64,000 nt of DNA from a virus. Lineage: Duplodnaviria > Caudoviricetes. Position 1 is the stretch's first letter. Each line of letters begins with the position of its first letter. The stretch covers positions 1-64,000 of the IMG/VR virus record IMGVR_UViG_3300034053_000029, one strand, 5' to 3'. Shown here one piece after another: positions 12,899-60,542 of the stretch. The notes beneath the pieces were generated by a model that did not search any database, had not been told where the DNA came from, and worked only from the letters and a program-made list of their open reading frames with translations. The translations under genes and the position numbers were made by a program.

Positions 12899-12957
12899 GA
12901 TAAATAATAGAGACAAAAAAATGCTAGTCACGGAATTGGAGTTCCCACTAGCCTTAG
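12899..12957 (+). ncRNA. Late promoter + conserved endonuclease leader hairpin, copy 1
   Basis: GATAAATA; GCTAGT-CAC-GGAA[TTGGAG]TTCC-C-ACTAGC-CTTAG. Confidence 0.6.
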
Positions 12958-12985
12958 TCATTTCAACGACAATCAGGAGATCATC

Positions 12986-13582
12986 ATGACCAACACCAAT
13001 ATTTATTACGTCTATGCTTACATTAGACATAAAGATTCCAAAACTGCTAAGGCAGGAACCCCATACTACATTGGAAAAGGTTCCGGTAAAAGAGCATTCG
13101 AAACACACAAAAAAGGTGGATATTGTATTAGACCAAAAGACTATAAGAACATCATTATTATGGAATCAAACTTAACCGAATTGGGTGCATTTGCTTTAGA
13201 AAGACGTATGATTAGGTGGTACGGAAGAAAAGATGCAAACACTGGAATACTGTGTAATAGAACTGATGGTGGTGAAGGTTATACTGGAATAAAACCAAAT
13301 CTAGTAGGAGATAAAAACCCAGCTAAGAGGCAGGAAGTTAAAGATAAGATATCAAAAGCAAACACAGGAATGAAATTGACCGAAGAACAGAGGTTAAAAA
13401 ATTCATTGGCTCACCGTGGGCTAATAAAATCTAAAGAAACCAGAGAAAAACTTAGGAACGCACAATTAGGGAAACCTAAGATAAAATGTTCGTGTATTTA
13501 TTGTAGAAAAGTGACACAATACACGAACATTTTAAGATGGCATTCTAACTGCGAACAACAAACACATTCCCATTCATTTTAA
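12986..13582 (+). CDS. GIY-YIG homing endonuclease with NUMOD3-like repeats
   Basis: YYVYAY...PYYIGKG.G.R; E...I..YGR......L.N.TDGGEG. Confidence 0.9.
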
Positions 13583-13844
13583 TCTCTAGTAGAGATTCTA
13601 AGTTTATCATTCTGTACGCCTTATCGGGATTCTCGGTGTTAGCTTCCCACACACCAACCAAGTTCTTAGCCTTGGGATCGAACTTCAGTTCGCCACCCTT
13701 AACAAACTTAGAGACACCCTTACGGCACACCATGTCACGAACCGAACCATCAGTACGCTTCACGAACTTAACCGAAAAGAACGTCGAACCATTGTACTCA
13801 CGAACCATCTGAGCAGCAACTTCACGGGAAATAACTTGTGTCAT
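13545..13844 (-). CDS. Conserved phage early protein (SH3/WYL-like)
   Basis: [15 protein letters not shown]...YRMINLE; AGGAG RBS. Confidence 0.7.
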
Positions 13845-13887
13845 AATTTTCTCCTTTAGAAAGACACGTTGAACAACCGATGAGTGA

Positions 13888-13928
13888 ATTATAAACGAAC
13901 CAATCTAGAAGTCAACAAATTTCGTAAG
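13888..13928 (-). promoter_or_regulatory. Early promoter
   Basis: TTGACT-16-TATAAT; partial upstream box CACTTACGAAA. Confidence 0.8.
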
Positions 13929-13946
13929 TGTCTGTTTCTAAAGATA

Positions 13947-14861
13947 TTAATTGTATCCACGTTCCCAACCAAGACCATCATTGATGTATCCGTCGTTCAA
14001 GTCCTCGGAGATAGAAAGTGTGGTGATAGGGTATGATGGAATACGCAAGTCACTGATAGGACGAATTTTTCCTTCGGCTTCAAGTTGCTCAATGGTCTTG
14101 TTTTCAAGATCAAGATCATCCATTACAGCATCTAGTTCATCTTTCTTTTCCATCTTTTCTTCCTCTGATCCATAAAACGATAGTTCCCAAAACACACCAC
14201 CCAATACATCACTAAGTGACATACCACGCTTTGCATCAATCAGTTTTGGGATATCTTTGTATTTCATTTCACACGCACGAATCTTCTCGACGTACTTTTC
14301 CCAATCATCATAAATCTGAAATGCATCGTTGATGCGAATTGGAAGACTTAGTAAATCATCAAGTCCACAGAAATCAATCCCCCAATTAATGCGTGATCCT
14401 TTATCATAAACACCACCATGCCCATCATCGTAATCTTCTTTCAACGCAAACCCGATACCGTGGCAACATACGTTATCTGCACCGTTAAGTTCGCCTTCAA
14501 AGATTTCTGGTGCCCAATACAATTCAAGGTACTCGATTTCCCTTGGATCATACACGACTGGTTTCTGAACGAAGCCGATCTTCTGCCATTGTTTCACATA
14601 CTCTGACACAAAGCAATTTGGAAAAGCAATGTCGCAGAGTTCTGGTTGTCCAGACATGATGATGAACAAATCATTCAGAACAACGTCAGGATGAATCCAA
14701 ACGTGACGGTCTCGTTTGTGCATCCAATCCATGAATGAGGAACAATCACGCTCCACATATTCACCCTTACCTGCCTCATGATCGTACACCCAATCGTTAT
14801 AGATGATCTTTCCCTTTGGGTGAATTTCAAGAGACAGAAATTGTTTATTATCTTTATGCAT
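13947..14861 (-). CDS. Hypothetical protein
   Basis: 304 aa ORF. Confidence 0.75.
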   Translation of the reverse strand: MHKDNKQFLSLEIHPKGKIIYNDWVYDHEAGKGEYVERDCSSFMDWMHKRDRHVWIHPDVVLNDLFIIMSGQPELCDIAFPNCFVSEYVKQWQKIGFVQKPVVYDPREIEYLELYWAPEIFEGELNGADNVCCHGIGFALKEDYDDGHGGVYDKGSRINWGIDFCGLDDLLSLPIRINDAFQIYDDWEKYVEKIRACEMKYKDIPKLIDAKRGMSLSDVLGGVFWELSFYGSEEEKMEKKDELDAVMDDLDLENKTIEQLEAEGKIRPISDLRIPSYPITTLSISEDLNDGYINDGLGWERGYN

Positions 14862-15262
14862 TATTTGAAATCTCTCATTTCGTTAAATTTATGTGCATCA
14901 ACTTTCTTCAAGAACAATTTTTCACGTTCTGAAATCGCACCCTGCACCTGATCGGTTTCGATCATTGCGTAGTAAGCATCTAGAAACCCACCCTTGATGT
15001 CTGCCAATTTACGGAATGGATCAAGAGGAAGAATACGCTCAACTCCAGAGTTGATTGCGGTTTCAAGTCCTAGTGCCTTATTGAAATTCTCTTTCTCACT
15101 ACAAATTGAGAATCGAACAGCAACTGTACGATCTTCGTAATCCATATCAAAAACTAGAGTGACACCACCAAGATTAGATGGTTCATAATTTTGTGTTAGG
15201 TTTCGCAGGTAACGAATCACACGAACATGTTTGACAACATCTGTTTTCTTTTCTTTCGTCAT
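14861..15262 (-). CDS. Hypothetical protein
   Basis: Refined start MTKEKK; FSICSEKENFNK.LG. Confidence 0.65.
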   Translation of the reverse strand: MTKEKKTDVVKHVRVIRYLRNLTQNYEPSNLGGVTLVFDMDYEDRTVAVRFSICSEKENFNKALGLETAINSGVERILPLDPFRKLADIKGGFLDAYYAMIETDQVQGAISEREKLFLKKVDAHKFNEMRDFK

Positions 15263-15272
15263 AATATATTCC

Positions 15273-15851
15273 TCACTTAAAAGGGAAGCGAACCTTCCCA
15301 TCGATTACTGGTAATTTGTGCCCATTCAAATAATAAGTCTTACTGTCTTTCATTGCCATCCAACCTGATTCCATACGACCAAATTGCAATGCGGTCTGAA
15401 TACACTCCAAACATACATGATCGTGGTTCCAACTTGTAGTGCAAAAATGCAATCTTTCTCCCCATGAATCGGAAGTAAACTTGAATATCTTAAATGCAGG
15501 TTTAGTTTCCTTACATACCGCACATTCCTTTGCCACGTTGTAATCATATGGTCGACCACGTTGAATCTTAGCGTAGTTTGGTAGAGCAGCAGTTGCATTC
15601 ACCTTCTTCAATAAGCAAGATGGACAAATACATTCCTTATGAAACTTGTCAGCATGAAACTTGATACCCAATCGGTATTTGAGTGGATATTTAGCATCAC
15701 ACATAATATCGAAACTAGAGAATGGCATCTTCACCTTACATTCAACGCACCGATACGGTTTGAGTTGATATGCAAGATAGTTCTTGACATTCTGCCAACG
15801 ATACCGATACAACCAATCCGGTACGTTAATCCTCAGATTTATCTTTGCCAT
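15273..15851 (-). CDS. Hypothetical Cys-rich (Zn-binding) protein
   Basis: Several CxxC pairs. Confidence 0.65.
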   Translation of the reverse strand: MAKINLRINVPDWLYRYRWQNVKNYLAYQLKPYRCVECKVKMPFSSFDIMCDAKYPLKYRLGIKFHADKFHKECICPSCLLKKVNATAALPNYAKIQRGRPYDYNVAKECAVCKETKPAFKIFKFTSDSWGERLHFCTTSWNHDHVCLECIQTALQFGRMESGWMAMKDSKTYYLNGHKLPVIDGKVRFPFK

Positions 15852-15952
15852 CTTTTTTATCTTTCAAAATAATGAATACCAAGAACCATGCGTACCATGC
15901 CGCCATTGTAATAACGACACCAACTATAAACCCCATCGGAAAATCCCACATT

Positions 15953-16231
15953 TCAAACCCTCTCGTTGATTCTTGCTTTCCACCACCACATTCGCTTGTT
16001 CCATCTGATCTTCGCTTGCTTCCATCGTGGTCTGGTTTTCACCGGAGCATGATCGACCAGGTAGTGAATGTGAGCAAATATACGTTGAAGAGGATCATCT
16101 ATGTGGCGACGAATACAGAATGCCATTCCTCTAGCATATCTCCAATACTTGTCTCTAGCGTCCCTAACTGGTCTAAATTTCATTTCTTCCAATTCACATC
16201 CCAAAACACTTCGTTTGGATGAGTTCTCCAA
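15953..16231 (-). CDS. Hypothetical basic protein
   Basis: ORF track; start uncertain. Confidence 0.45.
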   Translation of the reverse strand: MENSSKRSVLGCELEEMKFRPVRDARDKYWRYARGMAFCIRRHIDDPLQRIFAHIHYLVDHAPVKTRPRWKQAKIRWNKRMWWWKARINERV

Positions 16232-16413
16232 TAAAGTTGATATAATTTGTTGCCCTTACCAACGTACTTCTCAAATATAATATCCGATCTTGGGTGATTA
16301 TGACCTTGACAACCAGGACAAGGATACGATGCCTTCCATCTTTGCTTTTCCATCAGAGATTGTGGTCGACTCATCACGAAGTCCCAAAATCTGGTGCTAT
16401 AACAAATACTCAC
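16180..16413 (-). CDS. Hypothetical protein
   Basis: ORF track. Confidence 0.5.
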   Translation of the reverse strand: MSICYSTRFWDFVMSRPQSLMEKQRWKASYPCPGCQGHNHPRSDIIFEKYVGKGNKLYQLYWRTHPNEVFWDVNWKK

Positions 16414-16988
16414 TGATTCACCTTTTGAAGTGCACCGATTAATGGTTGGAGATTTTTTAAGGAAAACGAAACCGCCTCAAATTGAGTATCGATTCCAAGA
16501 ATCATTGCATTCCCATCTTCTGTTTCATATTCACCATAGCTTACTTCGATAGCCTGTCCATCATCATCAACAAAAGATTCTTTTTTAATTTCCTTCATTG
16601 GTTTCTCAAAGAAATAATCTTTTGTTGAAATCGTCAATGGTGAACCATTATGAGGAATAACCACAGCAATAAAATCTGAATGATTTGACGCACCTAGAAC
16701 TAGCCCCCAACCATTAAATAATCCACCATCACGAGTGCGATAATCTCTTACCCATACAGGAGTTCCAACTTCTGGTTTTGGTGCTGTTGCTTCTACTGCC
16801 TCTTTCTTTTGGTTATACACTTTCATTCTTTCCTCAATCTCTTTCTCTTGTGCCGGAGTCAAAATCAAAGTTGCATTATCCATCGTTGGAATTGGGCCGT
16901 ATGTCACTGGAGCAATACCGCCATGCCACGGATGAGTAAAAGGGCCAAATTGAATATTTCCTACATTGCTCATATCATTACCTTTCAT
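16410..16988 (-). CDS. Hypothetical protein
   Basis: 192 aa. Confidence 0.6.
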   Translation of the reverse strand: MKGNDMSNVGNIQFGPFTHPWHGGIAPVTYGPIPTMDNATLILTPAQEKEIEERMKVYNQKKEAVEATAPKPEVGTPVWVRDYRTRDGGLFNGWGLVLGASNHSDFIAVVIPHNGSPLTISTKDYFFEKPMKEIKKESFVDDDGQAIEVSYGEYETEDGNAMILGIDTQFEAVSFSLKNLQPLIGALQKVNQ

Positions 16989-17247
16989 ATAATTTATACC
17001 AATCGGAGTGGTAAATAACTCTCTTGCCCCAGGGAATACTAAAATTATCTTCTAATCCCTTGAACTTCATCAAAACGAATACCATCTGTTCTTCAGTGAT
17101 ATGAATTACATGATAGCACATTCCGGTCATATCTGTAAAGTGTTTTTTGATGGTATCTGACATAAGGTATAGTGAGTACCGGTCTTTATTTTTGTACCAA
17201 TAGTACTCAGGTAACTCACTATAATCATCCACCAAAATCAACTCCAA
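16978..17247 (-). CDS. Possible divergent LKW-family protein with C-terminal extension
   Basis: ITEEQMVFVLMKF motif. Confidence 0.5.
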   Translation of the reverse strand: MELILVDDYSELPEYYWYKNKDRYSLYLMSDTIKKHFTDMTGMCYHVIHITEEQMVFVLMKFKGLEDNFSIPWGKRVIYHSDWYKLYER

Positions 17248-17807
17248 CCTTTCATAATAGTGATGATTCGTCGCATATCATACTGACCAAGACCACGATC
17301 TTCATCCACCAAAATCAATTTGTCATCATACTTATCTTTGTCTGTAATAAGCGCACGATACATGCTATAACCGGAACTCTGATCATCGAGCGCAATCCAG
17401 TTTTTGACTTCTGGATGACGGGACAACCACGACTCGACTTGATGTAATCGACTACATGGATATCCAACACCATCCGAAATCTTTACCCAATCGTCATACT
17501 CAACTGCTTCACCACCTGTTTTCCAATCGGGATGTAGTAGAATAGGAACTTCATTTGTTTCAAACAAATCGATTGTGTTCTCCGGAGTCTTTAGGTGGTT
17601 TCTCCATGTCGAGGAAACGACCGTCTTGAAGTCATAGACTTTGTGCAAGTGTGTCCAGAAGTACTTGAATCGGTCGCACATTCTCCAGTAGTCGCATATC
17701 TCAATCAAGTCAGGATCGCCGGGATATACACGACGATTATCTGGATGGAATGAGATATCTACGTTAGTAAACACTGGTCCGTCGAAATCTAAGAAAACTA
17801 TATTCAT
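17238..17807 (-). CDS. HAD domain protein of Swiss-Army-knife RNA repair type
   Basis: IVFLDFDGP, VVSSTWR, WL..HPEV.NWIALDD. Confidence 0.8.
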   Translation of the reverse strand: MNIVFLDFDGPVFTNVDISFHPDNRRVYPGDPDLIEICDYWRMCDRFKYFWTHLHKVYDFKTVVSSTWRNHLKTPENTIDLFETNEVPILLHPDWKTGGEAVEYDDWVKISDGVGYPCSRLHQVESWLSRHPEVKNWIALDDQSSGYSMYRALITDKDKYDDKLILVDEDRGLGQYDMRRIITIMKGWS

Positions 17808-18694
17808 TTGAATTTATCCACCAATCGTTGTAATTCTGAAACAAGAGCATCCGTACCTTGATCTTTCACGAAAGCGTTACTAATACTCCCATAATGCATT
17901 TCGATACATTCCATCAGTAAATTCTTAATCACTTTTTCATCAGGTGTATTTTGTAAAGACGAATTTATATAAACCCCTTCGAGTTGTAATTGTTTTTGCT
18001 GATGCCATTCTTGCAATTGATCCAACGACCATTCTCCACGACGGATTGACATGAGGATTTTTGAATTACGCTCAAGGTCTAGATCATATTCTACCATGAT
18101 CTGTTCTGCCTCAAGTAACAACCTCACAACATGATAAGCGAATTTTACATCATACCCGAAATCTTCAATTGTCTTAGCACGTTTCGGATTAGATGAATTG
18201 ACTTTGTTTGCAATCTTGCTCATCTGACTGTGAGCATAACCAGAAAACTTATGCTTGCTACCTTTATGCAAAAACAATTTCCGATTATCACGAATATGCT
18301 CGTAAATATGGGTAGAATGAAGAACACAACGTCGAGGTAAGAATAAACTATCGACCATGTTTGGATTGTTTTCCATCGTCAATTGAAAGAATTTCACGAT
18401 AGAAAATATCGTAAGATCAAATTCCTTATTCCATTCTGGAACTTTAATATGGTGTTGTTGAAATTGCTCAAATCTTTCTTGTGGTGTTCCAAACCCAATA
18501 ATTTCTCCACGAAGATGAGGGAATAACACATCTTTTGGTGGCATACAGAATCCAACAATATCCATATCGCTTGTGTCGTTAGAACATCCATACGCAACCG
18601 ATCCAGTTAGTCCTTCAAAAAGAACATTGTTGGATAACCATTTTGGAGCATGAATTAGTGATTTTTCAACTAACTGATTTACATAACTTGACAT
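17804..18694 (-). CDS. DNA Pol-beta superfamily nucleotidyltransferase (RlaP / T4 NrdC.11-like)
   Basis: GSVAYG.S...SD.DI.G; NPN..D.L; YDVKFAYH..RLL. Confidence 0.85.
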   Translation of the reverse strand: MSSYVNQLVEKSLIHAPKWLSNNVLFEGLTGSVAYGCSNDTSDMDIVGFCMPPKDVLFPHLRGEIIGFGTPQERFEQFQQHHIKVPEWNKEFDLTIFSIVKFFQLTMENNPNMVDSLFLPRRCVLHSTHIYEHIRDNRKLFLHKGSKHKFSGYAHSQMSKIANKVNSSNPKRAKTIEDFGYDVKFAYHVVRLLLEAEQIMVEYDLDLERNSKILMSIRRGEWSLDQLQEWHQQKQLQLEGVYINSSLQNTPDEKVIKNLLMECIEMHYGSISNAFVKDQGTDALVSELQRLVDKFK

Positions 18695-18697
18695 TAT

Positions 18698-18901
18698 TTA
18701 TTCTTCTGAAAATAGTTTTTCTGTAGCCCACCCGATGGCAAGTGACTCGCTATCGTGCGTGGTTGTCTCATACCGCATAAACGGGTCAACAACCAGGAAC
18801 TTGCCTTCACTTGGCATAACGTAGAGCATCCTTCCTTTTTGGTTTGTGAGAACTTTCTTCTCAATGCCGTTCTTTGTGTCTTGTGTAATTTCAAGTTTCA
18901 T
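18698..18901 (-). CDS. Hypothetical protein
   Basis: Tightly packed ORF. Confidence 0.5.
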   Translation of the reverse strand: MKLEITQDTKNGIEKKVLTNQKGRMLYVMPSEGKFLVVDPFMRYETTTHDSESLAIGWATEKLFSEE

Positions 18902-19119
18902 TATTTTATTCCAAAATGTTGTTTAATATCCGCATCAACTAGCCCATTGTCAATTTGTGACTGCCGGCCGGCATACATGCATTCCTTGATAATCAACTCT
19001 GCAAAATCTTCAAACTGTTCAGTGCTACCAAGAATTTGAAATGGCTTAGGTGGATTAATCATAAAGCATTCAATCTTCAATCCTGCCTGTCTAGCAAGTT
19101 CTTTGATTCGCTCGTTCAT
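18901..19119 (-). CDS. MNERI-family small protein
   Basis: MNERIKELA...FAELIIKEC...HFGIK. Confidence 0.75.
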   Translation of the reverse strand: MNERIKELARQAGLKIECFMINPPKPFQILGSTEQFEDFAELIIKECMYAGRQSQIDNGLVDADIKQHFGIK

Positions 19120-19352
19120 TATTTTACTCCGAAATGCTTTTCTATATTATTCACTGCCGCAGTTGTTCCAAAATCAACGTAATCAGCACGAATTACATTA
19201 ACACATTCCTTCACAATCAACTCTGCGAATTTTTCCCGACTGAATTCTTTTCCAGTACGCTCAAACATATAACCGCTTGGTGGATCACGCTCCATTCGAG
19301 TATATTCCACATACGCTTCAAGTTCAAGTTCTTTAATTCGCTCGTTCATCAT
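19119..19352 (-). CDS. MNERI-family small protein
   Basis: MNERIKELE...FAELIVKEC...HFGVK. Confidence 0.75.
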   Translation of the reverse strand: MMNERIKELELEAYVEYTRMERDPPSGYMFERTGKEFSREKFAELIVKECVNVIRADYVDFGTTAAVNNIEKHFGVK

Positions 19353-19573
19353 TTTACTCCGAAATATTCTTCGATCATTGTAGCACCAAGTTCGGCACCA
19401 GTGTTCGCCTTATCGTGTTCTGATTTTAGATCGAAAGAGAAATCTGTCTCACGAAGTATCGTAGCACATTCCTTGACGATCAACTCTGCGAACTTAGCCT
19501 TGTCAAAGAAACGGAATCCATCGTGTTCTTCGACGGTGCATTGCTCAATAAGTTCTTTGATTCGCTCGTTCAT
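19349..19573 (-). CDS. MNERI-family small protein
   Basis: Refined start; FAELIVKEC...YFGVK. Confidence 0.75.
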   Translation of the reverse strand: MNERIKELIEQCTVEEHDGFRFFDKAKFAELIVKECATILRETDFSFDLKSEHDKANTGAELGATMIEEYFGVK

Positions 19574-19577
19574 TATC

Positions 19578-19960: not shown

Positions 19961-19984
19961 GTTTTATTCCTTTTCTGTGCTAAA

Positions 19985-19992
19985 TATTTATA
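19985..19992 (-). promoter_or_regulatory. Late promoter TATAAATA for the release-factor gene (overlaps divergent CTAAATA)
   Basis: Exact consensus. Confidence 0.65.
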
Positions 19993-44022: not shown

Positions 44023-44077
44023 TGATAAATAATATTATAACCAAAGGAGAATCAATATGTCCAGCACTTATTCATAA
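44023..44077 (+). pseudogene. Scar of a deleted endonuclease cassette: late promoter, RBS and 6-codon stub
   Basis: GATAAATA...AAGGAGAATCAATATGTCCAGCACT matches 50872-50895 start region. Confidence 0.6.
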
Positions 44078-45348
44078 TGAAGAGTTTCTCCGTGCGGTGC
44101 TTTAGCAGATTGGTTTTTATACATTAACCAAATTGTCGAAAACTTATCTGCATATTCCTCGCCCCAAGACGAAACATAGCCATCAGTAAAAATAATCGCT
44201 TGTTTTGGATTGTGATCATTTTCTTCGCACCACTTCCAGATACACGTTGGGTCAGTTCCACCACCACCTTTATATGTGGCATTTACAATAGCATCTATAC
44301 CATCGTCTTCTGTGAATTCGCCAGTATAATAAAAGTCAGTATCCCAAGTTCCAATTGTAATCTTATATCCAGAATATTGACCACAAATCCCAACGATTTC
44401 AGACATAAAATCACGCATTTCTGTTTGACCAATTGATCCACTAAGATCGAGAAACACACTCAATTCAATCGTCGGTTCCTTTTTCATCGAAGGAAGGATT
44501 GCATCGCAACCCCAACCACGACGAGAAGGTTTCATGAACGTGAAGTCATTCTTGATCTGAGAATCGATCTGTTGCTGAAGATACGATCTCCAATCCATTT
44601 TGCATTCTGTCAGGCCATCGATGTAACGACGGATTCCTGCAGGAATTTGGCCAGGTTGAACCGATTGTGCAGCAGCAAGCATTGCCTCTTTCAATTCATC
44701 TGCAATGGCTTGCTTTTCTTCTGCTGACAATTTTGGTCGACCTTTTCCTTCACCTTCTTCGTCGCCATCTCCTTCACCATCACCATCTTGATCACCATCA
44801 AGGTGTTCATCAAGCAATTGCTTTGCAAGTTGCTGCATATCGATCTTCTCGGCATTCTCATAAAGAGAATCATAAATTTCTTCTGATGCCATACCCTTGT
44901 ACTTTGGATCAAACAAAGTAGGAACCGTAGTAATGCGTTCTCCAATACGTTGATCGATCAGGTCACGGTTAATCGCATAGTCTGCGGCAATGTTCCATAG
45001 TTGAGGAATGCGATGACCACAACGACCACTCAGACCAACGTGATCGTATATGCAATGTAGAAGTTCATGCCCAACCAAGAATGTAACTTCCTTGTCCTTG
45101 AGCTTATTCACAAACTCAGAATTGTAATAAAGGTTACGACCATCTGTAGCGGCAGTCGGACACCAATCGTCAGCATTAACCAGTTGCAACCGAGTTGCGA
45201 TATTACCAAAGAATGGTTGTGAGAAAAGCAACGAAATGCGAGAGACAATGATCTTCTCTTTCGCCGCCTTATCCGTAGCAGGATTGGTTACGGTTCCAGT
45301 CTTTTCTTTCTTCGCTGAGACAACTTCTTTTGTCATTTTGAACCCCAA
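44068..45348 (-). CDS. Metallopeptidase-like (HExxH) + VWA domain protein
   Basis: TAATDG..LYYN, HELLH, WNIAADY.IN, DLSGSI, GGGT. Confidence 0.9.
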   Translation of the reverse strand: MGFKMTKEVVSAKKEKTGTVTNPATDKAAKEKIIVSRISLLFSQPFFGNIATRLQLVNADDWCPTAATDGRNLYYNSEFVNKLKDKEVTFLVGHELLHCIYDHVGLSGRCGHRIPQLWNIAADYAINRDLIDQRIGERITTVPTLFDPKYKGMASEEIYDSLYENAEKIDMQQLAKQLLDEHLDGDQDGDGEGDGDEEGEGKGRPKLSAEEKQAIADELKEAMLAAAQSVQPGQIPAGIRRYIDGLTECKMDWRSYLQQQIDSQIKNDFTFMKPSRRGWGCDAILPSMKKEPTIELSVFLDLSGSIGQTEMRDFMSEIVGICGQYSGYKITIGTWDTDFYYTGEFTEDDGIDAIVNATYKGGGGTDPTCIWKWCEENDHNPKQAIIFTDGYVSSWGEEYADKFSTIWLMYKNQSAKAPHGETLHYE

Positions 45349-49082: not shown

Positions 49083-49158
49083 TGGTGCCCCTGGTCTGAT
49101 TTGAACAGACGATCAACAAATTATGAGTTTGCTGCTTTCACCACTAAGCTACAGGGGC
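49083..49158 (-). tRNA. tRNA with CAU anticodon, probably tRNA-Ile2 (lysidine-modified)
   Basis: GCCCCTG/CAGGGGC acceptor, encoded CCA, CT-CAT-AA loop, GTTCAAATC T arm; C4:G69 and C5:G68; G1:C72 paired. Confidence 0.9.
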
Positions 49159-50792: not shown

Positions 50793-50854
50793 GATAAATA
50801 TCATGTAGCAACAAAAAATGCTAGTCACGAAGCGTCAACTTCTACTAGCCCTAG
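50793..50854 (+). ncRNA. Late promoter + conserved endonuclease leader hairpin, copy 2
   Basis: GATAAATA; GCTAGT-CAC-GAAG[CGTCAA]CTTC-T-ACTAGC-CCTAG. Confidence 0.6.
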
Positions 50855-50883
50855 ACATTCTAACATTTATCAAGGAGACAAAT

Positions 50884-51573
50884 ATGTCCAGCACTAGTAT
50901 TTATCAATTCAAACCTACATTTCTATACATCAAACAACATACCGTAACTGGTAAATTATACTTTGGTAAGACTACCAAGAATCCAGAAACATATCTTGGT
51001 AGTGGAAAATATTGGAGAAACCACATCAAGAAGCACGGAATAAAATATGTAATAAATTTGTGGTATTGTTTATTTTTAGACGAAAGCGATTGTAAGAATT
51101 TTGCATTATCTTTTTCTGAACAAAATGATATTGTTGAGTCGAGTATATGGGCAAATCTGATTAATGAGAATGTGTCTGGTGGTGGAAATATTGGAAAATT
51201 AAACGGAATGCACAAATCCAATAGAGATTACGATACCGATAAAGAAAAGAAGAGAATTAACAACATGAGAGCATCGAGAGCATTAGCATCAAAAGACCAA
51301 AATGTAAAATCATATTCTAGAGTCAAATCTGAAGAAGAACGTAAGAAGATTAGCGATAAAGCTAAACATCGATCTTTAGTAATATGTCCACATTGTGGCA
51401 AAGAATGTAATCAAATAAACGCAATTAGACATCATTTAGATAGATGCAAATCAAACCCAAATATATCAGAAGAAGATATGTTTATCAATAAGGTGACTAG
51501 AATACACGACAGAAAGTTAATGCAAATTGGTGGTTTTGCTGCTTGGATAAAGTGTAGCAAACATCTTCCTTAA
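50884..51573 (+). CDS. GIY-YIG (Seg-like) homing endonuclease
   Basis: FLYIKQH..TGKLYFGKT...Y.GSG.YW; AAGGAG RBS before MSSTS. Confidence 0.85.
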   Translation: MSSTSIYQFKPTFLYIKQHTVTGKLYFGKTTKNPETYLGSGKYWRNHIKKHGIKYVINLWYCLFLDESDCKNFALSFSEQNDIVESSIWANLINENVSGGGNIGKLNGMHKSNRDYDTDKEKKRINNMRASRALASKDQNVKSYSRVKSEEERKKISDKAKHRSLVICPHCGKECNQINAIRHHLDRCKSNPNISEEDMFINKVTRIHDRKLMQIGGFAAWIKCSKHLP

Positions 51574-52610: not shown

Positions 52611-52616
52611 CTGAAA

Positions 52617-54262: not shown

Positions 54263-54301
54263 ACCTATCCACAATAGTTATTTGTGAATATTTATGCATA
54301 C

Positions 54302-54421
54302 TCAATAACCAGTGATGGTGATGGTCAGGGTATCAAAGGAAGCACGGAATGCGATATTCCGAGTGGTCATAGCAGCACAACCGTCAAAGAACTCTTCAGC
54401 AGTATTGAAAGTGATGATCAT
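54302..54421 (-). CDS. Small early protein (39 aa, not in ORF track)
   Basis: AAGGAG RBS; MIITFNTAEEFFDGCAAMTTRNIAFRASFDTLTITITGY. Confidence 0.6.
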   Translation of the reverse strand: MIITFNTAEEFFDGCAAMTTRNIAFRASFDTLTITITGY

Positions 54422-54446
54422 GATAGTCTCCTTGTTGATGTAACGA

Positions 54447-54496
54447 ATTATAGAGACTTTCTGAAACTTGTCAATGAGTTTATTAAGTCATTGATT
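54447..54496 (-). promoter_or_regulatory. Early promoter with IHF box
   Basis: TTGACA-16-TATAAT; AATCAATGACTTA. Confidence 0.8.
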
Positions 54497-54499
54497 TAC

Positions 54500-54538
54500 A
54501 AAAGAAAAAAGGCAACACCCTTTCGGAATGTTGCCTTT
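54500..54538 (-). terminator. Intrinsic terminator
   Basis: AAAGGCAACA...TGTTGCCTTT followed by T-run on minus strand. Confidence 0.75.
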
Positions 54539-54554
54539 GTGGTGCGACTTGTGA

Positions 54555-56288
54555 TTATTTTTTCTTTTTCTTTTTCAATCCGCTAATATCAACTGCTTGA
54601 GCAGGTGCGTATGTCTTACCTTTCGCAGACTCTTGATCGTGTGGATGGTCGATATCCCAAATACCACCGTTATGCTTTGCCTTCTCAGCAGCACCCCTTG
54701 CATCATGGGTGAATTCGCTACTAGCAGTTTTTTCTAGATTAGTTGATAGGGTTGGTGATGTAGCAACGATAGCACCATGAACACCTTTTTTGGATTTGTA
54801 TCTGTCTTTTGGCAAATACTCATCATCTTTAAATCGAGCATCAGATGGGGTTGCATGCCCATTGACCATCACAGTTCTATGCAATCCGTGAAGAACATGC
54901 TGATTATGATAACGGTATAACGTACCATTAACTTTCAGATGACCTGAATGTGCCTTATCTGGAGTGGTTGGCTTACCGTCACCATCGTAGTGTGCTTCTG
55001 ATGGAAGATTCTTTTCTTCTTCAGTTTGATCCTTATGAGCAACACCACTCGACCAATACCTAGCAGTCTTTACATGAGTTGCAAATTCTTTTTCGTCTTC
55101 AGAACCTCTGCGTAAATTGTGAACAACATATGAATGTTTTGCAGGAACTTCATGTCCCTCATCGTTCTTTACCTTGTCTCCATTAGAATCTGTCGATGTA
55201 ATTGTTTGTCTTACTCTGGTTGCGTCTCTTCCAACGTTTTCATCAATGGTGCCACCATTCTTTACTTTTGGGCCAGTGTTTGAATAAGTTACATGGTGAT
55301 CGTTCTCTGGATCATTCAATGCATTTGTCTTGCTATATTGATATGAAATAATCGAAGACTTTCCTTCAGACTTGCGCTGTTTGTTTAAATGCTTTAGAAC
55401 GTGTCTAGTCGATCTATCATTTTCTGCCAATGTGTTTGGACGAACAACGTGTCTCTCACCATTCTTATCTGATCTTTCAGCATCATTTCTAACGCTATGA
55501 GTATGAGCTAAGATGTAATCATGTGTCATTGCAGGATCATGCATTGCTTGAGTATTTGCAGCACGACCTACCGCAGCATGAGCATATTGTGTTTCTGCAT
55601 TGTGAGCAAAACACGCACCTTTTCTAACATCGGCACCACCAGATGAATCAATGCCACCACCACACCCTTTTGTTTGACCAGGGCAGGTATTGATGATGTG
55701 ATGTTTTTCTGATTCTCCAGTGCCGGAAGTGTATACAGAATGTCCTGCAACGTGCTTACAAGCAGAAGCGGCAAATGGTCTACCCTTCTCATCATGTTCA
55801 AATTTAATTGAATCAGTCTTTTCACTGTCTGAAGTTGTTCTGCCAGATGTGGATAAGTGCTTTGCCTTTTTTAATCTTTCAACTGCAGCTTTTTCACGTT
55901 TAATCTGCTCGTCTTTTGGAAGTTTAAAATGTTCATCTAATGCTGCTTTATGTCCTCTCTCAACTTCACCAATACTAAGTGGTGGTCTGTCTTCATGACC
56001 ATAAACTTCTGCTCTAGCTTTATTTCTTTCTTGCATACCAATGTGGTTTTTACCATTTTCCCACATATGTTTTGGCACATTAACAGATGATGCGGCCTTA
56101 CCCTTAACTCCGGCATCTGCTTTAACAATTATGCGACCCGCATGATCTGGATCGTTCTCTACAGACTCATGTAACTCTTCATTATGAATAGTTTCAAACT
56201 CATCAAAATGTTGTTGTTGAACTTCATTTTCTCTTGGCGTACTATTCGCTTTAAACGCTTTAAATCTAATCATTATTCTCTCCATCAA
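54555..56288 (-). CDS. His/Lys-rich late protein with GP88-like domain
   Basis: NTCPG.T.GC...GACF...VRPN...YQYSK...HVTYS; CATAAATA at 56309-16. Confidence 0.55.
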   Translation of the reverse strand: MMERIMIRFKAFKANSTPRENEVQQQHFDEFETIHNEELHESVENDPDHAGRIIVKADAGVKGKAASSVNVPKHMWENGKNHIGMQERNKARAEVYGHEDRPPLSIGEVERGHKAALDEHFKLPKDEQIKREKAAVERLKKAKHLSTSGRTTSDSEKTDSIKFEHDEKGRPFAASACKHVAGHSVYTSGTGESEKHHIINTCPGQTKGCGGGIDSSGGADVRKGACFAHNAETQYAHAAVGRAANTQAMHDPAMTHDYILAHTHSVRNDAERSDKNGERHVVRPNTLAENDRSTRHVLKHLNKQRKSEGKSSIISYQYSKTNALNDPENDHHVTYSNTGPKVKNGGTIDENVGRDATRVRQTITSTDSNGDKVKNDEGHEVPAKHSYVVHNLRRGSEDEKEFATHVKTARYWSSGVAHKDQTEEEKNLPSEAHYDGDGKPTTPDKAHSGHLKVNGTLYRYHNQHVLHGLHRTVMVNGHATPSDARFKDDEYLPKDRYKSKKGVHGAIVATSPTLSTNLEKTASSEFTHDARGAAEKAKHNGGIWDIDHPHDQESAKGKTYAPAQAVDISGLKKKKKK

Positions 56289-56311
56289 TAAAGGGTAATT
56301 TGTTATTATAT

Positions 56312-56791
56312 TTATGGTTTCATTCCATTACGGTGTAACCAATCATGCCAATAAGTTTTGCTTCCAATCCTTGAAGATTCGGCTTTATTGACACCCATCT
56401 TGTCTTTCCATTCCTTTGATCGTTTCTTGCTTTCCTCAACATCAAATCCTGTGTAGTCATCTTTTACCCATTGATGTTTATGGTGCCATACTTTAGGTGG
56501 ATTCGATTGTTTTGTGAGTTTGGACTTTCCATTTGCATGAACCTTGATTGAATCTCCAACCGTAGGTTCATGGGCAGTATCGAAATCTGGAGAATGAATG
56601 AACGAGAAAGAACCCTCTTTCTTGTTATGCTTTATTGCGGTATATTCAAAGTCCTTTGGGAGTTGTCCCTTGGCTTTATTTAATTCATCTTGAGGAAGGA
56701 CATGATCATATGATTTATGAATATAATGATCATGTCCCATCACCTTACCGACTTCGACCTTCTCTTCCAGATATTGCTTGAAGGATATCAT
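56312..56791 (-). CDS. Putative capsid-internal protein resembling C-terminal domain of Dnd-associated putative methyltransferase
   Basis: MISFKQYLEE; FSFIHSPDFD..HEP.VG.S...NPPKVWHHK..WV..DY. Confidence 0.6.
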   Translation of the reverse strand: MISFKQYLEEKVEVGKVMGHDHYIHKSYDHVLPQDELNKAKGQLPKDFEYTAIKHNKKEGSFSFIHSPDFDTAHEPTVGDSIKVHANGKSKLTKQSNPPKVWHHKHQWVKDDYTGFDVEESKKRSKEWKDKMGVNKAESSRIGSKTYWHDWLHRNGMKP

Positions 56792-57378
56792 TTTTTGGTT
56801 ACAGTATGAACACCATTTTTTATACTATGATCATATTCACTTTCTGGAAATACATTATGCATAGCTTCTTGATAATGTGGATCATTAAGTTTTTTGTGGT
56901 GTTGCCAAGATTGGTCCTTTTGAGTCATTCTACCATTACCACTAGAGTCTCCGGTGTAAACGGAAAAATGAAATTTGCTGCCGGATGCAGGTTTCATAAA
57001 ACTCTTACATTGTTTTAGATGAGAAACTAGATGTTTCTTTTCTTTGATGACATTTCCGACATTATTTGAAAAAACGTGATCGGACTTACCACTATTTTGT
57101 TTCTCTACTTTGTCGTTGTGTTCTTGTGACCTGTTGAATGGGTCGAACACAGATGCATTTGCACCAGTAGTATCTTTGATGTGGGCAACACCTTTGTCAT
57201 ATTTTCCACCACCAACATCAGTTACCACATGATCTGGCTTAATGATACCTTTGGATGATACTTGTTTAATTGCAGATGCAACCTGATTTAGTGATGTTCC
57301 TGCTGACTTTTCCTTTTGGTCATCAAAATCACCAATACGTTCCAAAATCATTTCTAATATAATGGCGTTTAGTGACAT
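56788..57378 (-). CDS. Class I SAM-dependent methyltransferase-like late protein
   Basis: VTDVGGGKYD, VFDPF, HVFSNNVGNVI, SGNG..TQK..SWQ. Confidence 0.65.
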   Translation of the reverse strand: MSLNAIILEMILERIGDFDDQKEKSAGTSLNQVASAIKQVSSKGIIKPDHVVTDVGGGKYDKGVAHIKDTTGANASVFDPFNRSQEHNDKVEKQNSGKSDHVFSNNVGNVIKEKKHLVSHLKQCKSFMKPASGSKFHFSVYTGDSSGNGRMTQKDQSWQHHKKLNDPHYQEAMHNVFPESEYDHSIKNGVHTVTKK

Positions 57379-57379
57379 A

Positions 57380-57760
57380 TTACTTCCCCGATAGTTTTAC
57401 ATTATGACGATCTTCCAACTCTGCAGTAGTAGGTTTCGTGTTATGCACTTTTGTTGTTGCATTCACGCTGACCGGAACTGGATTCTCCAATTCATGGTAT
57501 TCATCGCCAGATTTTTTATCAGGATCAGAATTTGAACTTTGAGTAAGCCTCGAATCCCATGTCTGTGTATATCTTGCACCTGCAGGTGGAGTTTGACCTT
57601 TACGAACCCTAATATGAGTGTGCTTATTACCTGCTTTATCTGATGCATCTTGGGCATCTTTAACTTCATCATAGTTTGAGTCGGATTTGCTACCAAATCC
57701 CTCTAAAATCTTTTTGATCGACTCGTTGTATTTTTTATTATCAAACCCATTCTCATTCAT
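57380..57760 (-). CDS. Hypothetical late protein
   Basis: TATAAATA at 57794-801; KKILE site near N-term. Confidence 0.6.
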   Translation of the reverse strand: MNENGFDNKKYNESIKKILEGFGSKSDSNYDEVKDAQDASDKAGNKHTHIRVRKGQTPPAGARYTQTWDSRLTQSSNSDPDKKSGDEYHELENPVPVSVNATTKVHNTKPTTAELEDRHNVKLSGK

Positions 57761-57782
57761 GTAATTATCCTTTATGATTGAT

Positions 57783-57983
57783 TCATATGAATATATTTAT
57801 AGAATGTCCTTTTGGAGAATTTTCCATAATAATTCCATCACTTCTATATATCGGATAATATGTCAATGTGGTTGATGCCTCAATGACTTCCGAATTACCC
57901 AACGTCACTACATTGTATTGTGTCGAAAGAACACCACACGGAGAGACGTATGGGTAATATGTCGGGTAGTTACAGATCACCAT
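57783..57983 (-). CDS. Hypothetical protein
   Basis: ORF track. Confidence 0.4.
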   Translation of the reverse strand: MVICNYPTYYPYVSPCGVLSTQYNVVTLGNSEVIEASTTLTYYPIYRSDGIIMENSPKGHSINIFI

Positions 57984-58521
57984 GATGGTCGAATGTCACT
58001 GGAATTTTTTGCATTTCGGCAATGAGGTCTTCCATATTGTAAAATTTAAAATTGTTGGTGTCAATCCCAACGTCTTTAATGCGACCTTGGAGACCAGTAG
58101 GACTAGAATGACAGTGGCCATGAAAATGTATTGCTCCATGCCCCATACCATTCCATCGAGCCATAGGGAAATGGCACATAACAATCTTCTGTTTGTTGAT
58201 CGTGATTTCCTTTAGCTTTTCGACCCAAACAAAATATCGATGAAGCTCGACTTCCTTACGGATTCGATAATCGTGGTTTCCAAGAACGAGCTTGATTTGT
58301 CCTGTGAGCTTTGGCAGAAGATCATACAGACGTTCCTTGCGACCCATAGCAAGATCGCCAAGCACATAAATTTCATCGTGTGGCTTGACCGTTGAAGTCC
58401 AGTAATCAAGTAACGCCTCACTCATGGCATCACTTGTGTCAAATGCGCCACGAGATTCTTGGCAGTATTTTACGATATTCTCATGGTAAAAATGGGTATC
58501 CGCTGTAATCCAAATTGTCAT
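57970..58521 (-). CDS. Calcineurin-like phosphoesterase (phage type)
   Basis: ADTHF.H.NI, YVLGD, GNHD, CHFP, HGHCH. Confidence 0.9.
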   Translation of the reverse strand: MTIWITADTHFYHENIVKYCQESRGAFDTSDAMSEALLDYWTSTVKPHDEIYVLGDLAMGRKERLYDLLPKLTGQIKLVLGNHDYRIRKEVELHRYFVWVEKLKEITINKQKIVMCHFPMARWNGMGHGAIHFHGHCHSSPTGLQGRIKDVGIDTNNFKFYNMEDLIAEMQKIPVTFDHHGDL

Positions 58522-58530
58522 AATTTACTC

Positions 58531-58740
58531 CTAATCAGGTAATGCCTTGTAATGTGCAAGATGTTCAAAAAGTTTGATGATGTAACCGGCAGATGATCCA
58601 GAATGGTCTCGACCATCCAATATGGATAACATCTTAATTACATCGGTGCACAATATCTCTTGCATACCGTCTTTCCAAACTCCGTCAGTAACCCAACCTT
58701 TCCTGACAAACTCACTCATAGCAAATTCTGCGCTGTTCAT
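58531..58740 (-). CDS. Conserved hypothetical protein
   Basis: MQE....D....L......HSG.SA.Y....F..LA....L. Confidence 0.6.
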   Translation of the reverse strand: MNSAEFAMSEFVRKGWVTDGVWKDGMQEILCTDVIKMLSILDGRDHSGSSAGYIIKLFEHLAHYKALPD

Positions 58741-59129
58741 ACTTTAATCTCCCATTGAAAACGTGCCTTCATGCGTTCAATAGCTGCCTCTGGCACGTTA
58801 TGAATTGATCCAAACTCACCTTGAACGGTAATAATTTGCAACTTAATTCCCTTCTCTTTCGCCAGATCGATATACGGTTGACATTCCTTTTGAGTAGTGA
58901 AGGTGTTCGATACAATTACACTCATATTGTGACCGAGATATTCATCGGTCTGCCGGAAGCACCACTGATGAGCAGAATGCAATTTCGATTGGTCAAAAAC
59001 GTATTGACCATTTTTCATGAAATACATATCTGCTTCAAAATTAATGGAGTTATTATCTGCACCTAGTGCCTTAGCCAAAGTGGATTTACCTGACCCAGGA
59101 AGACCACGGATGAGTGTTAGTGTTTGCAT
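58737..59129 (-). CDS. P-loop kinase (polynucleotide kinase-like, AAA_33)
   Basis: LIRGLPGSGKSTLA, EADMYF, VSNTFT, HNVP. Confidence 0.9.
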   Translation of the reverse strand: MQTLTLIRGLPGSGKSTLAKALGADNNSINFEADMYFMKNGQYVFDQSKLHSAHQWCFRQTDEYLGHNMSVIVSNTFTTQKECQPYIDLAKEKGIKLQIITVQGEFGSIHNVPEAAIERMKARFQWEIKV

Positions 59130-59572
59130 TATAATCCCTTAATTGTGTCCTTCAACTCCAAATACATTTCATTGTATTTGCGAAGTCGAGCAGTATCTTT
59201 TTCCGTTATCCCTTTAAGCCTACGAATGTCGCTGTTATGACGAAGATCAGCAAGTTTTACAAGAATGGCATCTTTATTGGTCTTAATCCCATCAACATAT
59301 TCACGGTGAGTTTGTCCACGGTATTTGGTCAATAGTCGAAGTGCATCAACTACCCTCTTGGTGAATCCCATTTCAGATAGATCATTAAACGTAACGTCAG
59401 TGTCTTCAACAACATCGTGCATCACCGCAATCATCATAACTTCAAGATCATCAGTTTTGGTGTAATGCATAACTTTCAATGGATGCAAGATATAAGGCAT
59501 ACCACCTTTATCGAATTGCCCCATATGTTTTTCAGAGGCAAGTGCAATTGCTTTAGCTAGAAGAGTTTTCAT
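59129..59572 (-). CDS. HD-domain (p)ppGpp hydrolase-like (Mesh1/SAH type)
   Basis: H.GQ.DKGG.PYILHP, MHDVVEDT, VKLADL.HN. Confidence 0.85.
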   Translation of the reverse strand: MKTLLAKAIALASEKHMGQFDKGGMPYILHPLKVMHYTKTDDLEVMMIAVMHDVVEDTDVTFNDLSEMGFTKRVVDALRLLTKYRGQTHREYVDGIKTNKDAILVKLADLRHNSDIRRLKGITEKDTARLRKYNEMYLELKDTIKGL

Positions 59573-59700
59573 AATACGTCATCCTTAATTTCTTTTTTAT
59601 GAGCAGCACGTTCCGATTTCCAAAACACTCGCTTGCACCAACGAAGGTGTTTCCACCATTGCGGAGACCGAGTTCGTGTTCCTTTTTTAACTGATGCCAT
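59569..59700 (-). CDS. Small basic early protein (43 aa, not in ORF track)
   Basis: AGGAGG RBS; MASVKKGTRTRSPQWWKHLRWCKRVFWKSER. Confidence 0.65.
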   Translation of the reverse strand: MASVKKGTRTRSPQWWKHLRWCKRVFWKSERAAHKKEIKDDVL

Positions 59701-59721
59701 GATGCCTCCTGTGAAGATTGA

Positions 59722-59770
59722 ATTATACGCCTTATTTAGAACAAGTCAAGAAAAATATAAGTTATTGATT
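59722..59770 (-). promoter_or_regulatory. Early promoter with IHF box
   Basis: TTGACT-16-TATAAT; AATCAATAACTTA. Confidence 0.8.
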
Positions 59771-59782
59771 TACAAATGGAAA

Positions 59783-59812
59783 AGGGACAAACCCCTTACG
59801 AGATTTGTCCCT
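59783..59812 (-). terminator. Probable intrinsic terminator
   Basis: AGGGACAAA...TTTGTCCCT stem. Confidence 0.6.
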
Positions 59813-59825
59813 CAATTCGACATTG

Positions 59826-59872
59826 TATAAATAATATGTGGATCACGATGCGCTAACATCTATCCACCCTAG
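59826..59872 (+). ncRNA. Late promoter + conserved endonuclease leader hairpin, copy 3
   Basis: TATAAATA; GTGGAT-CAC-GATG[CGCTAA]CATC-T-ATCCAC-CCTAG. Confidence 0.6.
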
Positions 59873-59900
59873 AACTTAAACTAAACATGGGAGTCCCAGC

Positions 59901-60542
59901 ATGAATATTTATGCCGAAATGATATCAACAATTGCAATTAAAAACAAATATACCAAATGGTATCTGTCGATTATTTCAAACTCAAAATATAAAGAAGGGT
60001 ATTGTGAAAAACATCATATTCTTCCAAAGTGTTTCAAACTTGGTGGAGAAAAAGACCCATCAAATATCGTCAAATTGACTGCTAAAGAGCATTTTGTTTG
60101 TCATTTGTTATTGACTAAAATGTTCTTAGACAAAAAGAAATTTCAAATGATATACGCTTGCAATCGGATGTGTTTCAAACAAACACCAAATCACAAACGA
60201 GAATATGCAGTTTCATCTTCAGTATATGCTATAGTTAAATCAGAACAATCAAAGTATATGAAAATTAACAATCACAATAAAGATGGCAGTCAATCTAAAG
60301 CAGCATGGGATGTTGCATCCGAAGAAAGACATATAAATCAATCAGCAGTTGCAACTAAAAGGAATATAGAATATTGGGCAACAAGAAAGAAACCAATATT
60401 AGATTTTATATGTGAAGTGTGTGGAATTGAGTTTACATCAAAAAAGGAAAATCGTCGTTGTTGCGGCAAATCTTGTGCAGCAAGACTCAGAAATAAAATG
60501 CGGTGGCTTGGGAAACAAGGTATGCCACCAACCCCGGTTTGA
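59901..60542 (+). CDS. HNH homing endonuclease with C-terminal Zn finger
   Basis: EKHHILPKC..LGG..DPSNIVKLTAKEHFVCH; CEVCG...CCGKSC. Confidence 0.9.
   Translation: MNIYAEMISTIAIKNKYTKWYLSIISNSKYKEGYCEKHHILPKCFKLGGEKDPSNIVKLTAKEHFVCHLLLTKMFLDKKKFQMIYACNRMCFKQTPNHKREYAVSSSVYAIVKSEQSKYMKINNHNKDGSQSKAAWDVASEERHINQSAVATKRNIEYWATRKKPILDFICEVCGIEFTSKKENRRCCGKSCAARLRNKMRWLGKQGMPPTPV

Follow-up and report, generated by a model that had tools for sequence, protein, structure and literature searches.

Nuclease genes of a T4-like lake phage probably each begin with a gene for a small antisense RNA over their ribosome-binding site

The window analysed here is a stretch of 64,000 nucleotides, the first 64 kb of IMGVR_UViG_3300034053_000029, a complete virus record of 210,171 bp with terminal repeats, whose numbering it shares. 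It holds three small genes for nucleases or nuclease-like proteins that are each preceded by the same hairpin element. At 12923, 50820 and 59838, in each case after a late-promoter box, the nuclease-gene strand reads a 6-bp stem, CAC, a 4-bp stem with a 6-nt loop, a single nucleotide and then C(C/T)TAG, and a Shine-Dalgarno sequence and the start of the gene lie about 24 nt beyond this tail. The parts are as described in an original prediction, made from the window alone, of a leader hairpin in the nuclease mRNA. The letters of the stems vary among the three sites with complementarity kept, and each hairpin is the minimum-energy fold of its own 42-nt core (z -2.4 to -2.8). We argue that the hairpin belongs to the other strand: each nuclease gene of this lake phage probably starts with a gene for an antisense RNA of about 75 bases that would cover the ribosome-binding site of the nuclease.

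The portal protein of this T4-like phage is 49% identical to the portals of pelagimyophages and T4-like cyanophages, and one gene of the genome codes for a homologue of gp55, the late sigma factor of T4 (E 5.7e-21). T4-type late promoters depend on gp55, have the consensus TATAAATA and start transcription about 6 nt downstream. Since ATAAATA boxes are concentrated 20-40 nt 5' of gene starts throughout the genome, promoters of this type are plausible here. With a covariance model made from the collected copies, the hairpin is detected exactly seven times in the 210-kb genome, always in front of a small nuclease gene. Six of these seven nucleases lie on the plus strand, while 268 of the 305 genes in a crude call over the whole genome are on the minus strand.

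Further copies come from outside this genome. Three, with new stems, lie on two related IMG/VR contigs that encode an ATPase about 60% identical to that of the 210-kb phage. IMG/VR was also searched with a pattern in which both promoter boxes and the unpaired bases were fixed and every stem position was N; it returned at least 118 loci, and 9-10 of the 10 pairs are Watson-Crick in 116 of 124 matches, only two of which are obvious chance matches. Applied to 596 Gb of bacterial genomes, the same pattern matched by chance about ten times, never with more than 5+2 pairs; the pairing of the stems is far beyond chance. It also matched nine real copies there, of which eight are on short contigs of metagenome bins, probably phage fragments binned wrongly. 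The collection comprises 113 distinct copies, mostly from uncultured phages, with 45 different outer and 23 different inner stems.

The two helices and the strand on which they fold

The few stem positions that fail to pair on the nuclease-gene strand are nearly all A.C, that is, G.U on the opposite strand. Over the 113 copies, G.U pairs in the stems are specific to the antisense strand 21 times and to the sense strand twice, and the share of stem positions that pair is 99.7% for the antisense and 95.8% for the sense strand. The two bulges first described, CAC on one side and a single nucleotide on the other, are present at the three window sites; across the family they are not independent. 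The middle base and the single base occur as CGC/C in 53 copies, CAC/T in 31 and CAC/C in 29, and CGC/T never, and the middle base therefore pairs with the single base. What is kept family-wide is C-R-C-G, and not an invariant CACG as the three window copies had suggested. The 29 CAC/C combinations are again G.U on the antisense strand only, which brings the count for the hairpin to about 50 antisense G.U pairs against 2 sense. Folded over the same interval, the antisense strand gives the more stable structure in 108 of 110 copies, with a mean difference of 5.9 kcal/mol. Because of this bias in the wobble pairs, we conclude from the comparison of copies that the fold of the hairpin is selected on the strand opposite the nuclease gene.

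Read in this orientation the hairpin, which we call P2, forms a helix of 11 bp that is interrupted by two single bulged G residues and closed by a 6-nt loop. In an ungapped alignment of 101 copies, 99.6% of P2 cells are paired and nine of the eleven pairs show compensatory change, with a covariation score of 0.918 against 0.261 after shuffling and with only 29-48% of cells pairing in slid registers; the covariation first read from three copies thus holds for the family. Within P2, a core of U-A, bulged G, R-Y, bulged G and G-C is invariant amid variable surroundings. A kink-turn (3-nt bulge followed by tandem G.A) was considered for this region and rejected: an invariant G-C pair takes up the base that follows the "bulge", and the middle base pairs in Watson-Crick fashion.

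Folding the opposite strand from its expected start to the U-rich end reveals a second helix of 8 bp, P1, in nearly every copy. Here the RNA 5' end, G-CUGGNNNN, pairs with NNNNYUAG immediately before P2, and the invariant YCTAR tail that follows the hairpin on the sense strand is explained as one arm of P1. The UAG or UAA beside the hairpin was also considered as a conserved stop codon and rejected, having no consistent frame and being the P1 3' arm. Pairs 4-8 of P1 lay outside the constraints of every search pattern. They alternate among AT, TA, CG and GC, and 89% of their cells are paired; shuffling the partners leaves 57.5% paired (63.6% at most in 1000 shuffles), and sliding the register 36-41%. 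Pair 1 flips in a compensatory way, from C-G to U-A in copy 1 of the window and to G-C in Pseudoalteromonas phage XG4; the odd CTTAG tail of copy 1 is accounted for by its U-A pair 1, matched by a 5' GUUGG. Pair 3 is G.U in 99 of 101 copies, and the wobble bias of P2 recurs in P1, with 151 antisense G.U pairs against 8 sense. P1 encloses the region of the Shine-Dalgarno sequence, and 90 of 106 predicted RNAs carry the anti-Shine-Dalgarno sequence in a hairpin loop. It had been proposed that the structure does not cover the ribosome-binding site, which is right for P2 itself and wrong for the element, since P1 joins the tail to the start-codon region around the Shine-Dalgarno sequence. The invariant core of P2 and the invariant wobble of P1 may reflect protein contact or a tertiary role.

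When the window was compared with Rfam 15 at gathering scores, the element had no match, and a search of the surroundings of two copies at E up to 10 gave nothing but noise, so the element is uncharacterised in Rfam, as first supposed. The sole Rfam match at gathering score within the window is a tRNA gene at 49086-49158 (-).

Promoters and ends of the predicted RNA

All seven copies of the 210-kb phage, and all three in its relatives, have TATTTAT within nuclease codons 3-7, which on the opposite strand is an ATAAATA box pointing back towards the hairpin; the codons over it are always ATT TAT. From this box to the nuclease ATG the distance is 5 nt in some copies and 14 nt in the others. The GCUGG 5' end follows the box at 5-6 nt, and the P1 anchor sits at a single position in 71 of 101 copies, the predicted +1 being at the ATG or 0-9 nt inside the gene. 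With the 5' end fixed relative to the box and the distance to the ATG variable, the conserved sequence must be tied to the promoter and not to the reading frame. Twenty copies from five large contigs were found by the model only; they have the exact box in 16 cases and TAAATA in 4, with GCTG 4-6 nt after the box in all 20. The (N)ATAAATA boxes, a 5' end 5-6 nt after the box and the gp55 homologue are consistent with a promoter of the T4 late class. The recurrent nuclease N-termini, M-S/T-S-x-x-I-Y and M-x-I-Y, would then arise because these codons also encode the antisense RNA helix and its promoter.

At the 3' side of the antisense strand the hairpin is followed by an A and then by a U-rich tract, which in most copies is the complement of the sense promoter box. 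Where the sense box is at least 9 nt away, a run of U5-7 directly abuts the antisense hairpin in 10 of 14 copies. Between the sense box and the hairpin there are 2-20 nt (5 nt in 61 of 113 copies), and the box precedes both arms of P1 as well. The predicted antisense RNAs are 65-89 nt long (mean 75). Behind the one predicted for copy 3, a canonical terminator with a 14-bp GC-rich stem and a T-run (window 59782-59813, -) lies 13 nt past the sense box, directly placed as a second terminator. The features of the three window copies, and the positions of all seven, are collected in Table 1.

Table 1. Positions of the element, its predicted products and associated genes (window and genome share one numbering)
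Feature	Position	Strand	Remarks
Copy 1, sense late-promoter box (G)ATAAATA	12900-12906	+	16 nt 5' of hairpin
Copy 1, predicted antisense RNA, ~81 nt	12914-12994	-	5' GUUGG, U7 run at 3' end; predicted +1 6 nt after antisense box; from fold
Copy 1, helix P2	12923-12952	-	11-bp hairpin, two bulged G, 6-nt loop
Copy 1, helix P1	12954-12993	-	12954-12961 pairs with 12986-12993; encloses anti-Shine-Dalgarno loop
Copy 1, antisense late-promoter box ATAAATA	13000-13006	-	within codons 5-7 (N-I-Y)
Copy 1, nuclease gene, 198 aa	12986-13582	+	homing endonuclease; weak NUMOD3 match, GIY-YIG-like N-terminus
Copy 2, sense late-promoter box (G)ATAAATA	50794-50800	+	from sequence
Copy 2, predicted antisense RNA, ~81 nt	50812-50892	-	5' GCUGG, U6 run at 3' end; from fold
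Copy 2, helix P2	50820-50849	-	from fold and covariation
Copy 2, helix P1	50851-50891	-	50851-50858 pairs with 50884-50891 (ATG and next five bases)
Copy 2, antisense late-promoter box	50898-50904	-	within codons 5-7 (S-I-Y)
Copy 2, nuclease-like gene, 229 aa	50884-51573	+	no profile match; C-terminal part resembles nuclease at genome 121806
Copy 3, sense late-promoter box TATAAATA	59826-59833	+	other strand of box is U-rich tail
Copy 3, predicted antisense RNA, ~75 nt	59826-59900	-	5' GCUGG; from fold
Copy 3, helix P2	59838-59867	-	from fold and covariation
Copy 3, helix P1	59869-59899	-	59869-59876 pairs with 59892-59899 (between Shine-Dalgarno sequence and ATG)
Copy 3, antisense late-promoter box	59906-59912	-	within codons 2-4 (N-I-Y)
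Copy 3, MobE-like HNH homing endonuclease, 213 aa	59901-60542	+	phrog_655 at E 8.7e-33; 35% identity to T4 mobE
Plus-strand copies in genome	12921, 50818, 59836, 69847, 85992, 121736	+	covariance model
Minus-strand copy in genome	140010	-	covariance model
gp55 homologue	genome 122611-122952	-	L193; directly adjoins cassette nuclease at 121806-122468

Nuclease genes and genomes that carry the element

The element, with its boxes a cassette of about 90 bp, accompanies nucleases of different kinds. Among the three window genes, the HNH assignment of the third stands, the GIY-YIG/NUMOD3 assignment of the first comes down to a GIY-YIG-like N-terminus with a weak NUMOD3 match, and "Seg-like GIY-YIG" for the second was confirmed by no profile library. 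Over the whole collection, Pfam matches behind the cassette include SegE-type and classical GIY-YIG, HNH, TnpB (OrfB_IS605 with a TNB domain) and DUF559/Vsr-like proteins, and the module is therefore common to at least four nuclease folds. The view of a conserved element, probably an RNA, shared by unrelated nuclease cassettes is in this respect upheld. In the seven copies of the 210-kb phage, divergence is much greater among the nuclease proteins than among the leaders. Those at 50818 (50818-50905) and 69847 (69847-69935, L011) are identical in P2, tail and first seven codons, and differ in the Shine-Dalgarno/anti-Shine-Dalgarno loop; their proteins have no detectable similarity. This looks like a recombination junction just past the cassette, or loop-specific diversification.

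Several individual loci deserve mention. A 405-aa TnpB with OrfB_IS605, Cas12f-like TNB and HTH domains (L109:1071-2285, +) bears the cassette, including the M-T-S...I-Y start, so that the gene of an RNA-guided nuclease uses the control module of homing endonucleases. A 217-aa DUF559/Vsr-like endonuclease lies behind the cassette at L127:6889-7539 (-), and a second similar gene about 1.2 kb away has its own copy. In the 210-kb genome the nuclease of the copy at 140010 (139149-139985, -) is the only one co-directional with the phage genes and is found directly downstream of the large terminase subunit (140059-141696, -). Five tRNA genes (Gly, Phe, Leu, Ser and Asp; genome 68376-69361, L008:30-1015, -) lie just upstream of the cassette at 69847, whose nuclease is inserted beside this tRNA cluster. 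Two large HNH endonuclease genes, phrog_1314 and phrog_3339 (window 44068-45348, -, and genome 127387-128862, -), are both without a cassette, which in this genome accompanies small free-standing nucleases only.

Two cultured phages, Variovorax phage V45v66 and Pseudoalteromonas phage vB_Psh_XG4, carry one copy each, with both helices, directly before a homologous nuclease gene. The stretches concerned are near 85993-86120 of PV558790.1 for V45v66 and near 56132-56230 of PP712099.1 for XG4. The covariance model has no match in eight other cultured aquatic T4-like phages (S-SRM01, Mosig, Melnitz, S-CREM1, C48C1, S-N03, RN05-S/Sf-CH5 and ACG-2014f). Neither the region nor the cassette matched deposited phages in megablast and blastn, tblastn with the nuclease at genome 69913 also gave no match, and a narrower IMG/VR pattern demanding ATG, CAC and CCYTAG returned only a chance match (L009). 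One well-formed copy (L160; 5+4 pairs) is found in the isolate assembly of Tateyamaria pelophila DSM 17270, a marine member of the Rhodobacteraceae, on the 22.6-kb contig NZ_JAIMIA010000077.1; this may be a phage co-sequenced with its host, and is a possible host lead.

How the element might act

On balance the sequences favour two facing late promoters about 90 bp apart, one for the nuclease mRNA and one for a terminated antisense RNA of 65-89 nt that presents an anti-Shine-Dalgarno sequence in a loop. The outer promoter would give a nuclease mRNA that begins at the hairpin, or a few bases from it, in most copies. The inner promoter, in nuclease codons 3-7 and pointing backwards, would give an RNA of the opposite strand that starts with G-CUGG, folds into P1, with the anti-Shine-Dalgarno in its apical loop, and P2, and ends at the U-rich tract overlapping the outer promoter. 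Such an RNA would be perfectly complementary to the entire 5' untranslated region and the first 0-3 codons. Pairing of the two RNAs, probably begun by a loop-loop contact, could block ribosome binding, trigger decay, or both, and so keep the nuclease low, as IS10 RNA-OUT and P22 sar do for their targets; transcription across the outer promoter may add interference. Of the marks of an antisense regulator, the cassette has a predicted inward promoter facing that of its target and, by its geometry, complementarity to the Shine-Dalgarno and start region, and it has no homology to an antisense RNA family described in Rfam 15.

By analogy, the cassette could work like IS10 RNA-IN/RNA-OUT or P22 sar/ant, to which it is unrelated in sequence. 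In IS10/Tn10, the facing promoters pIN and pOUT produce the target mRNA and a 69-nt antisense RNA to its translation initiation region, which blocks ribosome binding (PMC5006887). In both systems the target is the gene for the DNA-cutting enzyme of a selfish element, two promoters face each other, and the antisense RNA, a predicted one in the cassette, is an imperfect stem-loop, stable in the case of IS10. The differences are several: (i), there is no sequence or Rfam relationship, and the targets are phage homing nucleases here and a transposase in IS10; (ii), both cassette promoters are of the phage late class and the terminator U-tract overlaps the promoter of the target, with repression in the cassette being presumed; (iii), the cassette RNA has two helices with the anti-Shine-Dalgarno in a loop, whereas in IS10 the RNA-IN 5' end pairs with the loop of RNA-OUT. 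The sar RNA of P22 is an antisense RNA of 68-69 nt whose promoter faces that of its target and which pairs with the ribosome-binding region of ant mRNA. It resembles the cassette RNA in being a small phage RNA from a facing promoter over the ribosome-binding region of a target, but it is a single locus of a temperate phage and controls an antirepressor, whereas the cassette is portable and repeated before unrelated genes. Two papers list sar/ant (PMC12197685; PMC5415839).

Closer in gene class are the translational masks of T-even phages, where hairpins on the mRNA strand sequester the ribosome-binding sites of I-TevI, I-TevII, I-TevIII, segB and Aeh1 mobE in early and middle read-through transcripts and a late promoter inside the hairpin lets late transcripts escape (PMC2988022). 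The cassette shares with them the kind of phage, the class of gene, a late promoter directly upstream, an RNA structure around the ribosome-binding site and, presumably, the purpose of limiting nuclease synthesis. Unlike the masks, it has a fold that is selected on the strand opposite the mRNA, and P1 read in the sense direction has an A.C at pair 3 that is obligatory; its sense box is upstream of the hairpin and both P1 arms and not nested within them, and it has an additional inward-facing promoter. Another antisense RNA linked to a homing endonuclease gene in an aquatic T4-like phage is CfrI of cyanophage S-PM2 (Millard et al. 2010), of about 225 nt, which the summary in PMC12197685 places between psbA and F-CphI and describes as proposed to act on psbA and its intron. 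As presented there CfrI is one locus, unlike the conserved two-helix module at nuclease start codons. A search of the literature on homing endonucleases with antisense RNA, late promoters or structured RNA returned only T-even mRNA hairpins, I-TevI autorepression and S-PM2 CfrI, and nothing describing the cassette, which is apparently an undescribed control module for homing nuclease genes.

Several points weigh against a repressing antisense RNA. The fold, its strand, the fixed distance from promoter to 5' end and the U-run emerge from comparing sequences; promoter activity, the exact 5' end, termination and repression we infer. Among sequencing runs matched to this DNA none was an RNA run, and one lake-water DNA run shared a small part of its words. 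Both promoters appear to be of the late class, so that a timing switch is not obvious and repression would have to be quantitative. The hairpin on the complementary strand is bulged and moderately stable (about -10 to -12 kcal/mol), with an A before the U-rich tract; termination may be inefficient, and a simple terminator scan gives no call at the bulged hairpin. The copies of V45v66 and XG4 lack a canonical ATAAATA box at the canonical distance. Most IMG/VR copies were obtained with a pattern requiring both boxes, which makes the box frequency among them circular, and only the 30 copies found by the model are unbiased in this respect. Finally, plain antisense pairing leaves unexplained why U-A, bulged G, R-Y, bulged G and G-C stay constant in P2.

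Could the antisense structure be mainly a terminator or insulator against backward transcription through the nuclease gene, whether from the read-through of a neighbour or from the inner promoter, with the short RNA as a by-product? We consider this unlikely. The hairpin with its U-run is on the appropriate strand, a canonical minus-strand terminator lies beyond copy 3, and with most phage genes on the minus strand the bulk of transcription would pass antisense through the nucleases. A terminator, however, needs neither P1, nor a conserved 5' end, nor a promoter 75 nt upstream, and polar termination between its genes would carry a cost for the phage. Moreover, the upstream neighbour is on the opposite strand at 63 of 101 loci and on the same strand at 38 (crude ORF call), so the element is not tied to the direction of flanking genes, which weighs against a terminator role for those genes.

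It also seems improbable that the RNA acts in trans, serving some protein of phage or host (perhaps the nucleases themselves) as cofactor, decoy or recognition handle, and that it overlaps the nuclease start as a convenience of packaging. The complementarity to the ribosome-binding site is obligatory in the geometry and the anti-Shine-Dalgarno is displayed in a loop; no partner gene was identified, and with unrelated nucleases a shared protein partner would have to be something else. What this explanation does capture is the invariant P2 core, the P1 G.U and the GCUGG 5' end amid variable surroundings, typical of protein-binding or tertiary motifs, and the presence of the same RNA beside at least four nuclease folds, TnpB included.

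The cis element of the nuclease mRNA first envisaged, acting on the sense strand as a 5' stabiliser, translational operator or switch linked to an upstream reading frame, we judge very unlikely. Expression control as such remains plausible, and the sense strand does fold: the hairpin would stand at the very 5' end of the late mRNA in most copies, given the common 5-nt spacer, the sense P1 would pair the AUG or the spacer between Shine-Dalgarno sequence and AUG, and T-even homing endonucleases do use mRNA hairpins (PMC2988022). But the sense strand has A.C mismatches where the antisense strand has G.U in both helices, one of them obligatory at P1 pair 3, its fold is weaker in nearly every copy, and a cis element would leave both the fixed-distance antisense box and the U-run unexplained. 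The upstream ATG, which does lie 65-66 nt before the start in all three window copies, is not conserved: the position reads ATG in 43 of 113 copies (38%), GTG in 33, TTG in 15 and a non-start codon in 22, and the idea of an upstream reading frame is rejected. That the element acts as DNA, as a single-strand hairpin or cruciform for recombination, replication priming or cassette mobility, is hardly credible: G.T is the best-tolerated mismatch in DNA hairpins too, making the strand bias alone compatible with it, and the cassette with the first 4-7 codons has clearly been shuffled among nuclease genes (50818 and 69847), but an RNA is what the fixed-distance promoter box, the U-run, the loop with the anti-Shine-Dalgarno sequence and the presence of two separate helices fit. 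In addition, the nuclease genes lack a second hairpin or an inverted repeat at their other end, and nothing implies an HUH enzyme or another that binds hairpins.

Going beyond the antisense RNA that we favour, we tentatively raise a wider hypothesis, which we would not call likely: that the cassette is a universal portable governor of selfish nucleases, serving at least four unrelated folds (GIY-YIG, HNH, TnpB/RuvC and DUF559/Vsr-like), that helices and anti-Shine-Dalgarno loops diversify under selection so that each copy in a genome answers only its own antisense RNA, and that the bulged-G core docks a phage or host protein. The 210-kb phage carries seven copies, and there are other contigs that carry eight. 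If true, such copies would form a natural library of orthogonal riboregulators and reveal a new layer in the conflict between phages and homing elements.

Homing endonuclease genes shape phage genomes, and to our knowledge their control is known only from a few T-even examples, by mRNA hairpins and autorepression. A structured small RNA gene in the first 90 bp of more than 100 nuclease genes, from several unrelated families in uncultured aquatic T4-like phages, would add to homing nucleases a principle of post-transcriptional control for which IS10, IS200 and P22 offer known examples. The RNA would moreover form a new family whose covariation is unusually clean, one that is directly testable, since V45v66 and vB_Psh_XG4 are deposited, host-linked genomes that carry the element.

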